Source: a virus. Taken from it: a stretch of DNA of 64,000 nt. The translations under genes were made by a program, and so were the position numbers. The stretch is taken from positions 1 to 64,000 of the IMG/VR virus record IMGVR_UViG_3300033183_000212; one strand, 5' to 3'. Positions 9,256-16,166 of this stretch are shown here, in pieces; position 1 is the first letter of the stretch, and every line of letters starts with the position of its first letter. Under the pieces are notes generated by a model. It had not been told where the DNA came from. It saw only the letters and a list, made by a program, of their open reading frames with translations, and made no database searches.

Positions 9256-9936
9256 ATGAGTATTTTTGACAAATATCCACTAGTAACACGAGTAAATATT
9301 CCTAAGGATTCGATCGAAACATTAGGTCAAAGCACGTTTAACTCAGATGATGAGTATACACCATTGATCGAAGGCATACGTAAGATAATGCCTCAAGTGA
9401 AAGAAGTATATAAGAGTGAAATCTTAGCTGGTTTCAAACGATTCAAACGTAAGGATGCAGTTGAGTACTTTAACTCTCTTCCCATGTCTCAACGGTCGGT
9501 CGAGCTCAGTAAACAAATGGGAGACTCAATCAATAACTTGTTCGAAGAGTTACTCATCGAGTCTGGCATTAACTTACTCGTTGATCAGGGTGATGGATTC
9601 GACTGGGTCTACCAAAACAATCGTAAGACATACATCGAGGATAAAAATGCAATGTCACAGGATCTATCCAATCGTATGTGGGTAGGCAACTCTGGCTCCG
9701 GTCGTAAAGTAAGTATGCACCTTTTAAAAAGATTTGAATTAAATGAAAACTATGAGTTGGTTGGAGCTCACATCTCTTTAGTCAACCTAGATGATACGAC
9801 TCAGTATTGGGTCAATACAGCAGGAGCTCGTAGCACTTTATCCTTTACAAAGAAGGACATTAGTGGTATAATTACTATCTACGGCTCATGGGAAGCAAAG
9901 ACGAAAAACATTTTTCCACGTTGGGAGGCAATCTAA
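9256..9936 (+). CDS. hypothetical protein (possible PD-(D/E)XK nuclease)
   Basis: GAGAGGAA SD. GDGFDWVYQNNRKTYIEDKNA fits D-x13-E-x-K. Confidence 0.5.
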   Translation: MSIFDKYPLVTRVNIPKDSIETLGQSTFNSDDEYTPLIEGIRKIMPQVKEVYKSEILAGFKRFKRKDAVEYFNSLPMSQRSVELSKQMGDSINNLFEELLIESGINLLVDQGDGFDWVYQNNRKTYIEDKNAMSQDLSNRMWVGNSGSGRKVSMHLLKRFELNENYELVGAHISLVNLDDTTQYWVNTAGARSTLSFTKKDISGIITIYGSWEAKTKNIFPRWEAI

Positions 9937-10298
9937 TGAAGGAATCAATTAAAGTTTTACAAGAGTGTGCTGAGTTGCAAGACAAAAAGTCTCGTGATTA
10001 TCAGAACCCTAACTCAAGAATCAAGCAGGCGGATTACTATCCACGTGGTGTATCGACTATCTTAGATACAGTTAACGCAAAAGTATTACGCATGTGGTCA
10101 GTGATCGAGGCAATGGAAAATGATCCGTACTATAAGCCTAACTTCGAGTCTATCGAAGACAGCGCTAAGGACATCATTAACTACTGCTCGTTCATTGTAG
10201 CGTACTGCCGTGGTAAGGTGCCAGGCCAAGATCCAAACAAAGACTTTCTCAATCGAGAGATCAAGCAACTAAAGAAGGAAAAAAGTGATGAAGTTTAA
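9936..10298 (+). CDS. DUF1599 (nucleotide-modification-associated domain 1) protein
   Basis: LQECAELQDKKSRDYQNPNSRIKQADYYPRGVSTILDTVNAKVLRMWS matches my recollection of DUF1599. GGGAGG SD and TAATG coupling. Confidence 0.6.
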   Translation: MKESIKVLQECAELQDKKSRDYQNPNSRIKQADYYPRGVSTILDTVNAKVLRMWSVIEAMENDPYYKPNFESIEDSAKDIINYCSFIVAYCRGKVPGQDPNKDFLNREIKQLKKEKSDEV

Positions 10299-11100
10299 GA
10301 TGGCCATTGTCGGTCACGGCTTTGTGGGTAAAGCCGTAGACTATGGGTTCAGTCACCCTAATGTAGAAAAGAATGTGATCGATCCGAACTACAATACCTC
10401 GATCAAAGATATTCCTATCGATGTCCAGCTCATCTTTATCTGTGTGCCTACACCGTTTGGTAACTTCGATATCTTTCGAGGAGTAATGAAAGAGCTTGAC
10501 CAAGGAGGATTCTTTGGTAACAGCGTAGTAGTGATTAAGTCGACAGTTCCGCCCAACGTCTTGTCTGAGTTTAAAGACACCGGCGTTGTCTATAATCCTG
10601 AGTTCTTGACTGAGAAGTTTGCCAGTGAAGACTTCATCAATCCTCCTATGCACGTGTTTGGTGGTAACCTGCACAACACTGAACTTCTAGAGCGGTATTA
10701 CAACGAGTACAGCCTGTGTAGTCCTGCTCCAGTCTTTAAGGTGTCGATTGAAGAGGCATCTATCATTAAGTACACGATCAATTCATTCCTTGCTACAAAA
10801 GTCATGTTCTTTAACCAGATCTTTCAGGTCTGTCAAGAGAACGGGTTTGACTTTAACAAGGTTGCGAACGCAGTTGGCGCTGAACCACGTATCGGTAAGA
10901 GCCACACAAAGGTGCCAGGCTTTGACGGAAAGCTTGGCTTCGGCGGTGCCTGTTTTCCAAAAGATACCAAGGCATTCATTGATTACAGCGATAAGTTGAG
11001 CGTGCTGCGTGCTGTTGTAGATGCGAACAATAAAGTTCGCGCTGGTTACGACCTTGATGATCGAGAAAAAGTTCAAGGTGTGGTGTACAAGATCGCATAA
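10285..11100 (+). CDS. UDP-glucose/GDP-mannose 6-dehydrogenase family protein, lacking the usual C-terminal UDP-binding domain
   Basis: MAIVGHGFVGKAV (NAD motif), KSTVPP, NPEFLTE and GGACFPKD (catalytic Cys box). Only 271 aa. Confidence 0.75.
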   Translation: MMKFKMAIVGHGFVGKAVDYGFSHPNVEKNVIDPNYNTSIKDIPIDVQLIFICVPTPFGNFDIFRGVMKELDQGGFFGNSVVVIKSTVPPNVLSEFKDTGVVYNPEFLTEKFASEDFINPPMHVFGGNLHNTELLERYYNEYSLCSPAPVFKVSIEEASIIKYTINSFLATKVMFFNQIFQVCQENGFDFNKVANAVGAEPRIGKSHTKVPGFDGKLGFGGACFPKDTKAFIDYSDKLSVLRAVVDANNKVRAGYDLDDREKVQGVVYKIA

Positions 11101-14035: not shown

Positions 14036-14979
14036 AGATTTTAATCACCGGCGCTGCAGGAATGATTGGCTATCACTCTGCAATGCAGTTTAAAAAAGCA
14101 GGCCACAGCGTCATCGGCGTTGATAACTTCAATGACTATTATGAAGTTCAATTGAAGAAAGATCGAGCAAAGATCTTAAAAGATGAGTATGATGTTGAAG
14201 TACAGAACGTCGATATTCGAGATGTAGTGTGGGCAGACTCTACTCGAGATGTAGATGTAGTACTCCATCTGGCCGCGTACGCGAACCCACGCCACGCGCT
14301 CGCGGAGCCTCAGCCGTACATTGATACAAACATCACTGGCACTCAGCGCTTGGTGGAAGGTTGTGAAGCAACACAGACTCCTGTTGTATACGCTTCTAGC
14401 TCATGCGTAATGCATGGTCAACCTCTCCCTTGGAACGAGCATGATAAAGGTGCTCACCAGAACAATCCCTATGGCTGGTCGAAGTATGTTAATGAGTGTC
14501 AATTCTCTCACTCTAAAGTTCCAGCATCAGTTGGTCTAAGGTTCTTTACTGTGTATGGTCCTTATGGCCGGCCAGACATGGCGCTGTTTAAGTTCACTGA
14601 TGGTATCGTGAATCAAACACCGATTGATGTGTTTAACTATGGTAACATGAAGCGAGACTTCACGTTTGTTGATGATATCGTTCAAGGCGTAGAGATCGTA
14701 GTGAACTCTCTGCTTGACGGCAAGATTGAAAAGACGCATGACATCTTCAACATCGGCTATGGCCAACAGGTTCAGCTCATGGACTTCATTCACCGCATTG
14801 AAGCCTGTGTTGGTAAGAAGGCTATCATGAACATGTTGCCGCCTCATCCCGCCGATACACCCGAGACTTGGTCTGACACGACCAAGCTTCAGAAACTGGG
14901 TTACATGCCTACTACATCGATTCATGACGGTGTGGCTAAGTTTGTTGAGTGGTACTTGGACTACTATCTTACCGCATGA
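14032..14979 (+). CDS. NAD-dependent epimerase, UDP-glucuronate 4-epimerase-like
   Basis: [17 protein letters not shown] (YxxxK) and the hallmark [21 protein letters not shown]. Confidence 0.8.
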   Translation: [315 protein letters not shown]

Positions 14980-16166
14980 ATTACGCAAGCATCATCCCTC
15001 TGATTGGTGGAGAAACAATTGCGATGCAGCAGGTATTCGGGAAACGACCTGAGTACCTGCTCAGCTATGAAGCGTTCTCTGCTAATGATCGCCATCTCGT
15101 AGAATACTATAACAAAGAGGTGCCCTACTATGTCCTTGATAACAGATCTGATAATCGGTTTCCTAGTGTTGACGTGGTCAATACTGTTTGCCCCTGCGCT
15201 GGCCTTAGCAGTCTATCTCCTACTTCTAATAGCGATAGTCTTACTAACGACTGGATGGTTAACACTGCAGGCTATGTCCTGGAGTCTCTATCCCCTCGTG
15301 TTTTTTGGGGTGAGAACGCCCCACGACTCGCTTCGAAGATGGGCGCGCCAGTTGTAAACAGACTGAAGGATATCGCGAGTAAGAACGGATACACCTTCTC
15401 GATCTTTAAGACTAAATCTATACTTCACGGATTGAGCCAGGTTCGTGATCGTACATTTTATTTCTTTTGGAAAGGTAATACCGTACCTGTTTTCAAATAT
15501 ATAAAAAGAGAGCACGAAAAGATTGAGGAAACGATTCGTTCCGTGAAACGCGATCCAAGTGATCCAATGAGTGTCCTCGCTAACAAGCGTGTTCCATCAG
15601 AGAATCCGTACTATAAGTACGTACTAGAAGAGATCGAGGGTGGCATTACTCATCCAGAGTTTGTGCAACTTATCGATAAGACAACGAATCCAATGCACTA
15701 TATTGAGGAAAAGAAAGTCTCTTACCTCGAGGTTGCAAAGTGGATGAAGACCCACGGCTTTGAGAAAGAATCTCTTCGCTGTGAAGTTGTCCACCGCAAG
15801 TTGTCAGAAGGTGGTAATGTAATGCGTAAGCTGGTAGAGATTCCTAAAGGACACATCGGCGCGTTTGTTGGTCACTTTCCTACTCAGCTCACTCATCCCG
15901 ATGAAGATCGTTTTCTTACGATTAGAGAATGTCTGTCTATCATGAAGTTACCTACAGACTTTAACCTACAAGGTGGAGTCCGTAACATCAATCACATCTG
16001 TCAAAACGTACCAGTGTCGACTGCAAAAGACATGGCATGGAACGTACAGGAACACCTACTTGGAAATCTAGAAACAATAGAGACACCGTTCCTCATACAG
16101 GACAATAAGACACAAACCTACGAATACGACAAGCAGAGTTTACAACTTGATGATTTTATGGTATAA
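14976..16166 (+). CDS. DNA (cytosine-5)-methyltransferase
   Basis: IPLIGGE (motif I variant), CPCAGLS (PC motif IV), WGENAPRL (ENV motif VI) and TIRECLSIMKLPTDF. ATGA overlap with the upstream gene. Confidence 0.85.
   Translation: MNYASIIPLIGGETIAMQQVFGKRPEYLLSYEAFSANDRHLVEYYNKEVPYYVLDNRSDNRFPSVDVVNTVCPCAGLSSLSPTSNSDSLTNDWMVNTAGYVLESLSPRVFWGENAPRLASKMGAPVVNRLKDIASKNGYTFSIFKTKSILHGLSQVRDRTFYFFWKGNTVPVFKYIKREHEKIEETIRSVKRDPSDPMSVLANKRVPSENPYYKYVLEEIEGGITHPEFVQLIDKTTNPMHYIEEKKVSYLEVAKWMKTHGFEKESLRCEVVHRKLSEGGNVMRKLVEIPKGHIGAFVGHFPTQLTHPDEDRFLTIRECLSIMKLPTDFNLQGGVRNINHICQNVPVSTAKDMAWNVQEHLLGNLETIETPFLIQDNKTQTYEYDKQSLQLDDFMV

Follow-up and report, generated by a model that had tools for sequence, protein, structure and literature searches.

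In phage T4, 5-hydroxymethylcytosine (hmC) is supplied ahead of replication by the dCMP hydroxymethylase gp42, and the transferase Agt leaves plain alpha-glucosyl-hmC in the DNA. Among the T4-related phages surveyed in 2010, gene 42 was found only in T-even-type phages, RB69, JS98, CC31, Acinetobacter phages, and some Aeromonas phages, and in none of the cyanophage type (PMC2993671). Another route was reconstituted by Pyle et al. (bioRxiv 10.1101/2023.12.21.572611) from metagenomic phage clusters that centre on a C5 methyltransferase together with a TET-like dioxygenase. In subclass II of these clusters the transferase works only together with the neighbouring epimerase, the best structural match of the epimerases is MoeE5, a UDP-glucuronate (UDP-GlcA) 4-epimerase, and two contigs, 57 (epimerase and transferase) and 91 (transferase alone), gave cytosine modified with a hexuronic acid (433 amu; 5-HexA-mC for contig 57); an acidic sugar on 5hmC is thus already known. 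Here we analyse a gene block related to both systems, located at positions 9936–16166 of a 64-kb stretch (hereafter, the window) of the ~147-kb viral contig IMGVR_UViG_3300033183_000212. The block encodes a gp42-type hydroxymethylase and an Agt-family transferase whose gene overlaps that of a predicted UDP-GlcA 4-epimerase of the short-chain dehydrogenase/reductase (SDR) type; the remaining members of the pathway were sought within the same 64 kb.

The block resembles the T-even system at the nucleotide step and subclass II of Pyle et al. at the decoration step. With the T-even phages it shares an orthologous gp42 that has identical catalytic Cys and Asp residues, an Agt of the same family (PF11440, GT72) with the same motifs, a dCMP deaminase, and a setting among gp43, UvsX, and gp41 genes. 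It differs in that its agt gene is fused to the epimerase gene, whereas the a-gt gene of a Tevenvirinae phage, taken as a control, has no sugar-nucleotide genes next to it. Furthermore, a MazG-like enzyme stands where the gp56 (dCTPase) function is expected, thymidylate is made by ThyX, the module includes a C5 methyltransferase (C5-MT) and uracil-DNA glycosylase (UDG)-like and D1599-like proteins, the transferase is only ~30% identical and carries a basic insertion of ~20 residues, and the lineage is marine and Kyanoviridae-like, outside the gene 42 carriers of the 2010 survey (PMC2993671). As in subclass II, the epimerase adjoins a DNA glycosyltransferase with a C5-MT next door, and MoeE5-like epimerases occur there too; sister loci with a TAGT transferase, a C5-MT, and a short SDR (the L095 class) resemble those clusters even more. 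Here, in contrast, hmC would come from a pre-replicative gp42, and the scanned ORFs of the window yielded no TET/JBP domain; because of these two features we do not place the block in the methyltransferase/TET class. In addition, the transferase is an Agt (GT-B, GT72) rather than GT-A/TAGT-like, the epimerase is of the full-length GAE type (315 aa) rather than short (~240 aa), and a gene similar to the UDP-glucose dehydrogenase gene ugd (hereafter, Ugd-like) is present.

Two further comparisons are instructive. Phages RB69 (arabinosyl-hmC) and DLP3 (arabinosyl-5-hydroxycytosine) likewise encode a transferase together with enzymes for a non-glucose activated sugar, but they use an arabinose 5-phosphate route and other transferases, with neither SDR nor Ugd (PMC6024577; PMC13326640). 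The bacterial UDP-galacturonate (UDP-GalA) pathway, Ugd followed by an epimerase such as BcUGAepi or those of the Gla/Cap1J type, shares diagnostic residues with the window SDR, and the Ugd-like protein keeps the catalytic residues; unlike its bacterial counterpart, however, the Ugd-like protein is without the whole UDP-binding domain, and the genes belong to a phage module for replication and DNA modification rather than to a polysaccharide locus. What is new here is the combination, in an uncultured marine lineage, of a pre-replicative route to hmC with a transferase of the Agt family, a GAE-type epimerase fused to it, and a C5-MT whose substrate is not obvious. The original prediction knew of no description of an acidic modification of this kind in T4-like phages. 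As a claim of novelty this holds for T4-like gp42/Agt systems: no such system with uronic-acid enzymes turned up in the literature that pairs hmC or dCMP hydroxymethylase with UDP-glucose dehydrogenase, glucuronic acid, or galacturonic acid. It does not hold beyond them, given the hexuronic-acid-modified 5hmC of the methyltransferase/TET clusters (bioRxiv 10.1101/2023.12.21.572611). In the truncated files of the MetaGPA paper and its supplements (PMC8670742), nothing usable linked Ugd, epimerase, or AGT domains to modified DNA.

From the gene content, we consider it very likely that the DNA of this phage carries glycosylated hmC. Since the agt gene is always fused to a gene for an enzyme predicted to make UDP-GalA, the sugar may be acidic; we put the chances of a hexuronic acid at about even, a galacturonosyl group being plausible. 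The fuller reading, in which an abundant uncultured marine T4-like (Kyanoviridae-like) lineage would make hmC by the gp42 route and decorate it with galacturonic acid through a donor-switched Agt whose donor is self-supplied by the fused epimerase, is tentative, with chances slightly short of even.

Genes of the modification block

All eight ORFs of the block lie on the + strand, in the order and at the coordinates originally predicted, and belong to a longer, tightly packed run of genes that spans 7.7–16.2 kb (Table 1). The flanks consist of T4-type replication genes (gp43 polymerase at 4029–6536, UvsX at 16525, gp41 at 17838), with a polymerase 53% identical to that of the Kyanoviridae phage C48C1 and ~49% identical to those of Synechococcus myoviruses. 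Megablast found no match to the block among 50,697 phage records, and the best Agt identity among isolates is 30%; at the DNA level this is a new phage, and its lineage has no close cultured relative. The same block occurs in at least 137 IMG/VR contigs, which is more than chance. The block is confirmed as real and six of its eight gene calls are solid, namely, those of the short Ugd-like dehydrogenase, gp42-like hydroxymethylase, dCMP deaminase, Agt-like transferase, UDP-GlcA 4-epimerase, and C5 methyltransferase, whereas the labels DUF1599 and UDG fold fall below threshold.

The gp42 homolog scores 3e-74 against the T4 enzyme and 1e-12 or weaker against any thymidylate synthase. Both FICTN and RSNDVVFG are present, Cys148 of FICTN aligns with FMCTN of T4, and Asp179 is kept in KNDYAW (RNDYAW in T4), at the cytosine-specifying position marked by D179N mutant entries. 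Given this score, the retention of both residues, and a separate ThyX that would supply dTMP and so leave a thymidylate-synthase-like enzyme free for dCMP, the product is by all sequence signs a genuine gp42-type dCMP hydroxymethylase. Its C terminus extends ~85 residues past the T4 enzyme (11776–12030) and overlaps the start of the deaminase gene; this extension is shared only with the closest relatives (L073/L085) and is missing from most others.

The product of the ORF at 12791, for which a lack of similarity to Agt would have refuted the original prediction, is strongly similar to Agt over its full length (Pfam AGT, 1.4e-34, 120 bits against a cut-off of 25; PDB 1XV5, 1.3e-43; phrog_2888, 6e-69), with ~30% identity at 100% coverage to Tevenvirinae a-gt (tblastn). 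The motifs RG.EG.G, DH, GR...WKG, EGLE.S, and E..H are invariant in comparison with one Tevenvirinae Agt; as in retaining GT-B enzymes, these would represent the active-site elements Gly-rich loop, DH, R-x4-K, EGLE, and E..H. The basic-rich insertion of the marine Agt (RRK..R..K, ~20 residues) follows EGLE, at 13450–13600 of the window or Agt residues ~220–270, and is not found in Tevenvirinae Agt.

The epimerase assignment is consistent at several levels. The best PDB matches of the SDR are 5U4Q (6.5e-74), a Klebsiella homolog with ~50% identity, the Bacillus cereus UDP-GlcA 4-epimerase BcUGAepi (6ZL6, 2.5e-43), and MoeE5 (3e-29), and the motif [21 protein letters not shown], cited with the original call, is present. 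The Rossmann motif TGAAGMIG is likewise present, YGWSK aligns with Tyr149 and Lys153 of BcUGAepi, ASSSC with its carboxylate-binding STSS (Thr126/Ser127/Ser128), FFT with Thr178, and YGRPDMA with RQR185PDMA, of which Arg185 holds the UDP-GalA carboxylate (PMC12338863). A TVYGPxxRxDM motif is kept in 76 of the 77 unique orthologous GAE-type SDRs, whatever their context, and those linked to Agt form one sequence cluster. An NCBIfam scan gave no model at cut-off and no UGAepi equivalog model in its output. In sum, the SDR has the sequence hallmarks of UDP-GlcA 4-epimerases, and its specificity is proposed by homology. The name of 5U4Q, dTDP-glucose 4,6-dehydratase, and a UDP-xylose synthase were both ruled out as functions by Arg185, Thr178, and the Ser cluster of UGAepi; the Asp/Glu typical of dehydratases is missing from the window sequence (ASSSCVMHG).

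Stop and start codons overlap in ATGA both between agt and the SDR gene and between the SDR gene and C5-MT, so that the three genes look like one translationally coupled unit. The C5-MT scores 55.8 bits against the Pfam DNA_methylase model (6.4e-15; cut-off 22) and its translation has PC, ENA(ENV), QxRxR, and QNVP motifs; phmmer found no match for it among PDB sequences. In both the Agt and the TAGT class this gene always occurs together with the transferase–SDR pair (window 14976–16166; L095:7002–8210; L115:13305–14495). The gp42 route should leave little unmodified cytosine, yet a C5-MT is present, and neither the block nor the Pfam-scanned ORFs of the window yielded a Tet_JBP or 2OG-type DNA dioxygenase; candidate targets include residual cytosine, host DNA, or others.

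The MazG-like NTP pyrophosphatase noted in the original prediction at 7754 is borne out by its profile matches (PRA-PH 7e-10, phrog_671 3.6e-24). It is a candidate dCTPase that probably removes dCTP. Its gene is co-inherited with gp42: when the module relocates, the MazG-like, D1599-like, gp42, and cd genes move as one unit, and the MazG-like gene is missing from pol-prim-Ugd-uvsX loci devoid of gp42. For a gp1-type dNMP kinase, which would phosphorylate hm-dCMP, no kinase domain was detected in the Pfam-scanned ORFs of the window, which covers 64 of ~147 kb and includes several ORFs without a match.

Two smaller proteins were less amenable to annotation. The label DUF1599 given to the first ORF was not sustained: its match to PF07659 has E = 0.89 and 10.4 bits, and that of an ortholog E = 0.0098 and 16.7 bits, where the cut-off is 25 bits, a PDB profile search gave no significant match, and Foldseek with the AlphaFold2 model, which has three helices, returned no significant fold match, the weak MazG/DCTPP1-like matches at E > 2 being no evidence. 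This D1599-like family is very conserved, with more than 1200 homolog clusters at 70–80% identity, none of which has a Pfam assignment, and in the compared loci the gene always adjoins gp42 and always accompanies MazG. A single PHROG family, phrog_18404, is matched in its first half by the MazG-like protein and in its second half by the D1599-like protein. The UDG-fold label of the fifth ORF stays below the Pfam cut-off (E = 0.003, 18.2 bits against 24.3), but the motifs VGLNPA and LPHPSGLNRK agree with it, as do the top Foldseek matches, UNG (E = 0.011, probability 0.87), MUG (TM-score 0.52), and TDG (0.49), with E ~0.01 and TM-scores of 0.4–0.5.

Comparative genomics of the locus

The comparison covered ~160 related viral loci. 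An Agt-seeded scan of IMG/VR returned 137 relatives, of which the best 80 loci (Agt 64–91% identical to that of the window) entered the comparison, and a scan seeded with the Ugd-like protein returned more than 570 viral stretches. Most of these loci are contig fragments, so that a gene termed absent is absent from the fetched stretch.

In the Agt-seeded loci the usual gene order is D1599-gp42-cd-(UDG-like)-Agt-SDR-Ugd-MT-uvsX; in the window and its closest relative (L073/L085), the Ugd-like gene is shifted to directly before gp42. The SDR gene, in contrast, is the next gene after agt in 81 of 81 cases; the stop and start codons overlap and the gap has a median of 0. Five loci (L039, L048, L060, L061, and L063) have Agt-SDR-MT without a Ugd-like gene between SDR and MT. 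In contigs of class C, Agt-SDR-MT lies downstream of gp41, as part of MazG-D1599-gp42-cd-UDG-like-Agt-SDR-MT, whereas the Ugd-like gene has kept its place before uvsX (L042 and L133, two parts of one contig). This arrangement indicates that relocation of agt takes the SDR gene along but leaves the Ugd-like gene behind.

Upstream of uvsX, the Ugd-like gene is found alone (pol-prim-Ugd-uvsX), with only a GAE-type SDR, or with other decoration cassettes. The latter comprise TAGT (PF20691) with a C5-MT and a short SDR of 264 aa; a second Agt clade with a short SDR of 250 aa; X318, which has a GDSH motif, with a pyridoxal-phosphate (PLP)-enzyme-like protein and X351; and a TAGT placed between pol and prim. 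Sister lineages carry different cassettes at the same genomic position (L095:6172–9001, L086:6042–6992, L115:11279–13305, L089:10496–14016), and the set of X318 (GDSH), PLP-enzyme-like protein, X351, and X210 may represent a non-sugar hypermodification. Across 40 non-redundant loci spanning prim to uvsX, with Agt, Agt2, TAGTa, TAGTb, and X318 counted as decoration cassettes, an SDR is present in 29 of the 29 loci that have a cassette and in one of the 11 that have none (Fisher exact test ~1e-8, uncorrected for phylogeny or shared ancestry). The TAGT family, although unrelated to Agt, is likewise paired with SDRs. Comparative genomics thus supports a link between the SDR and the DNA glycosyltransferase.

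These observations divide the original argument, which had taken the uronic-acid enzymes around the hmC and agt genes to suggest that the sugar could be acidic or a second sugar be present. The part that concerns the SDR is supported by its link to Agt (81/81; 29/29 against 1/11); the adjacency of the Ugd-like gene to gp42 and agt turned out not to be informative.

Identity of the sugar

The reading that we favour is a two-part DNA hypermodification system, acting first on nucleotides and then on DNA. By homology, the gp42-type enzyme would convert dCMP to 5-hydroxymethyl-dCMP and the dCMP deaminase would give dUMP to ThyX for dTMP, while the MazG-like pyrophosphohydrolase would lower dCTP; together, these activities would lead to the incorporation of hmC during replication. 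On the DNA, the Agt-family transferase would attach a sugar to the hydroxymethyl group of hmC, its donor most likely being UDP-GalA and its product galacturonosyl-hmC, with an alpha linkage if the enzyme retains configuration like T4 Agt. The coupled GAE-type epimerase would make UDP-GalA from UDP-GlcA, itself presumably drawn from the host or, less certainly, made by the short Ugd-like dehydrogenase. An acidic sugar with an axial 4-OH would make the DNA resistant to nucleases and glycosylases directed at C, hmC, or glucosyl-hmC.

Several observations weigh against this reading. The first concern the Ugd-like protein, which matches the N-terminal NAD-binding domain (PF03721, 2e-20) and the central domain (PF00984, 1.8e-11) of UDP-glucose/GDP-mannose dehydrogenases, whereas the C-terminal UDP-binding domain PF03720 was found neither in it nor in its 120 closest homologs, all of 264–301 aa. 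The original call of a truncated Ugd was correct as to this domain content, but without PF03720 the protein cannot be filed as a canonical Ugd. Nor is it the remnant of a pseudogene, an option that we discarded because the short form is conserved in thousands of homologs, with Cys223, Lys162, Asn166, Asp227, and GxGxxG invariant (GGACFPKD and NPEFLTE are present). In most relatives the gene lies after the SDR gene and not before gp42, and it is near-universal upstream of uvsX, even where gp42 or any glycosyltransferase is missing; since the whole family is without the UDP-binding domain, its position beside gp42 says little. This two-domain gene directly precedes uvsX in more than 500 viral contigs, including loci without DNA-modification genes (L085–L162).

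Other points concern the SDR and the transferase. GAE-type SDRs also adjoin cassettes that lack a glycosyltransferase (the X318/PLP class). The one locus with an SDR and no cassette is the complete genome of phage C48C1, in which the order is prim-SDR-Ugd-uvsX: this phage, on which we found no literature, has a GAE-type SDR (49% identity) and a Ugd-like protein (41%) without gp42, cd, MazG, Agt, TAGT, or C5-MT. Hence, in at least one relative, the pair has a role independent of hmC and UDP-GalA another use. The window has a possible alternative consumer of UDP-GalA in its glycan island (55.7–63.6 kb), and much of the synteny could reflect vertical inheritance within one lineage. Finally, all recognisable Agt motifs are shared with the glucose-using Agt, so that no re-tooled donor pocket is apparent; donor specificity is not readable from the transferase itself.

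Accordingly, the most serious alternative is plain alpha-glucosyl-hmC as in T4, with the SDR and the Ugd-like enzyme feeding envelope or virion glycan synthesis and the hmC module inserted into their slot. Phage C48C1, with the two genes at the same position and no hmC genes, speaks for this account, as do the more than 500 contigs with a Ugd-like gene upstream of uvsX, many with nothing else there, the glycan island preceded by the same promoter motif as the block, and donor-site motifs identical to those of glucose-using Agt. It does not explain why the SDR stays fused to Agt in class C loci, away from the Ugd-like gene, why 10 of the 11 cassette-free loci lack an SDR that all 29 cassette-bearing loci have, or why other Agt and TAGT clades have different, short SDRs directly beside the transferase, a pattern which in the clusters of Pyle et al. 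proved to be functional coupling. On balance, we regard the glucosyl alternative as the main competing account, though less likely than the favoured reading.

A sugar that is neither glucose nor a uronic acid is improbable. In this case the SDR would give the Agt-like enzyme another epimer or a pentose (UDP-galactose, UDP-xylose, or UDP-arabinose), as might be imagined given that its specificity is assigned from homology, with no NCBIfam equivalog at cut-off, and that MoeE5-type enzymes take both UDP-GlcA and UDP-Glc (PDB entries exist with each ligand). Other phage pairs of epimerase and transferase also yielded hexose and N-acetylhexosamine (bioRxiv 10.1101/2023.12.21.572611), and arabinosyl-hmC is known in RB69 (PMC6024577). 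The SDR itself argues otherwise: the carboxylate-binding Ser/Thr and Arg185 are kept, the conservation of TVYGPxxRxDM (76/77) is near-complete, and the acid/base Glu/Asp of dehydratases and decarboxylases is missing.

More remote still is oxidation of the sugar after its transfer, by which the Ugd-like enzyme would turn glucosyl-hmC into glucuronosyl-hmC in the DNA itself. The invariant catalytic set for a four-electron oxidation of the C6 alcohol, combined with family-wide absence of the nucleotide-binding domain, would suit such a reaction, as would the place of the gene inside the window module, beside gp42. On the other hand, the family occurs in phages with neither gp42 nor a transferase at the locus, C48C1 included, the UDP-sugar epimerase would be left unexplained, and the reaction has no known precedent. 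That the Ugd-like protein is a new kind of sugar 6-dehydrogenase with no UDP handle is a further, less likely twist. The last option, a gp42 homolog that is in fact a thymidylate synthase or a dUMP hydroxymethylase, with a thymine-derived modified base or none, could call on the adjoining dCMP deaminase as a supplier of dUMP and on the fact that UDG-like genes occur in thymidine-hypermodification clusters, but it was rejected as barely credible in view of the gap in E-values, the cytosine-specifying Asp179 in place of the Asn of thymidylate synthases, and a ThyX that already covers dTMP synthesis.

Should galacturonic acid be the sugar, this would be the first acidic sugar on hmC from a pre-replicative gp42/Agt system, and nearly every cytosine would probably be covered, as opposed to the specific motifs modified in methyltransferase/TET systems, in a phage group that is frequent in marine viromes (the Agt-SDR pair is present in at least 137 IMG/VR contigs). 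Such a modification would alter the charge and shape of the DNA and change how readily it is attacked by type IV restriction enzymes and by glycosylases specific for glucosyl-hmC, such as Brig1; it would also bias virome sequencing and amplification, and 5hmC labelling could benefit from an Agt that accepts a new donor. If the acidic-sugar reading holds, the interval between cd and uvsX would be a site at which Agt with a long SDR, Agt2 with a short SDR, TAGT with a C5-MT and a short SDR, and X318/PLP are swapped. Even with plain glucose, the comparison shows that decoration cassettes are exchanged behind a conserved nucleotide module (MazG-D1599-gp42-cd), which maps where new DNA modifications may be sought.

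Promoters and other features of the window

Table 1. Features of the modification block and associated genes and motifs in the window
Feature	Position	Strand	Basis
Promoter-like TGTACA-N17-TATAAT	7702–7730	+	Upstream of MazG-like gene
MazG-like all-alpha NTP pyrophosphohydrolase, candidate dCTPase	7754–8167 (ATG 7754)	+	Pfam PRA-PH; phrog_671
Primase-like N-terminal protein	8142–9071	+	phrog_9765
ORF without matches	9256–9936	+	Pfam, PHROG scans
Promoter-like TTTACA-N17-TATAAT	9844–9872	+	Upstream of D1599-like and Ugd-like genes
Small all-helical protein (D1599-like)	9936–10298	+	GGAGG 8 nt upstream of ATG; weak DUF1599/Nmad1-like similarity
Short Ugd-like NAD-dependent sugar 6-dehydrogenase	10285–11100	+	PF03721 and PF00984 only
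Promoter-like TGTACA-N17-TATAAT	11084–11112	+	Directly upstream of gp42
gp42-type dCMP hydroxymethylase	11116–12030	+	T4 dCMP hydroxymethylase (1B49/1B5E), E = 3e-74
dCMP deaminase (cd)	11999–12457 (ATG 11999; ORF from 11975)	+	Pfam dCMP_cyt_deam_1, 2.9e-20
UDG-superfamily-like protein, start codon uncertain	~12388–12825	+	Sub-threshold Pfam UDG; motifs; Foldseek
Promoter-like TTTACA-N17-TATAAT	12589–12617	+	174 nt upstream of Agt; candidate promoter of Agt-SDR-MT unit
Agt-family (GT72, PF11440) DNA hmC glycosyltransferase	12791–14035	+	Pfam AGT; 1XV5; phrog_2888
GAE-type UDP-glucuronate 4-epimerase (SDR), 315 aa	14032–14979	+	PDB matches; start overlaps Agt stop (ATGA)
C5-cytosine DNA methyltransferase-like (C5-MT)	14976–16166 (ORF from 14949)	+	Pfam DNA_methylase; start overlaps SDR stop (ATGA)
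ThyX flavin-dependent thymidylate synthase	19628–20314	+	Pfam Thy1, 4.2e-41

The sequence T[GT]TACA-N17-TATAAT occurs in 11 exact copies in the window, all on the + strand, against 0.01 expected by chance (positions 2759, 7702, 9844, 11084, 12589, 16139, 27294, 46931, 50857, 52393, and 55537). Each copy immediately precedes a block of genes, and the -10 element is often extended by TGG; besides the four in Table 1, the copy at 16139 precedes the gene before UvsX and that at 55537 the glycan island. These are probably the sigma-70-type early promoters of the phage.

Between the DNA polymerase and MazG genes, positions 6533–7729 encode a FAD oxidoreductase similar to D-amino-acid dehydrogenase (Pfam DAO, 3.5e-54); none of the related loci has it, not even the closest one, L085 (91% polymerase identity), which indicates a recent insertion. 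The glycan island (55730–63607) contains a GT8-like gene (weak match), a 380-aa SDR, an FkbM methyltransferase, two GT25 genes, and several ORFs without a match. Another island, at 27849–34158, stands out by its low GC content (30% against ~43%) and consists of ten consecutive short genes, including those for a fatty-acid desaturase/hydroxylase-like protein, an Asp/Asn beta-hydroxylase-like protein, a TauD dioxygenase, an S-adenosylmethionine-dependent methyltransferase, an FMN reductase, and a redoxin. Accessory genes familiar from marine myoviruses are also scattered across the window, namely, those for a class II aldolase-like protein (556–1182), Hsp20 (2858–3328), ThyX (Table 1), a PstS-like phosphate-binding protein (26540–27403), T4 RNase H (50915–51766), a DenV-like pyrimidine-dimer glycosylase (52448–53065), and PhoH (53408–54085).

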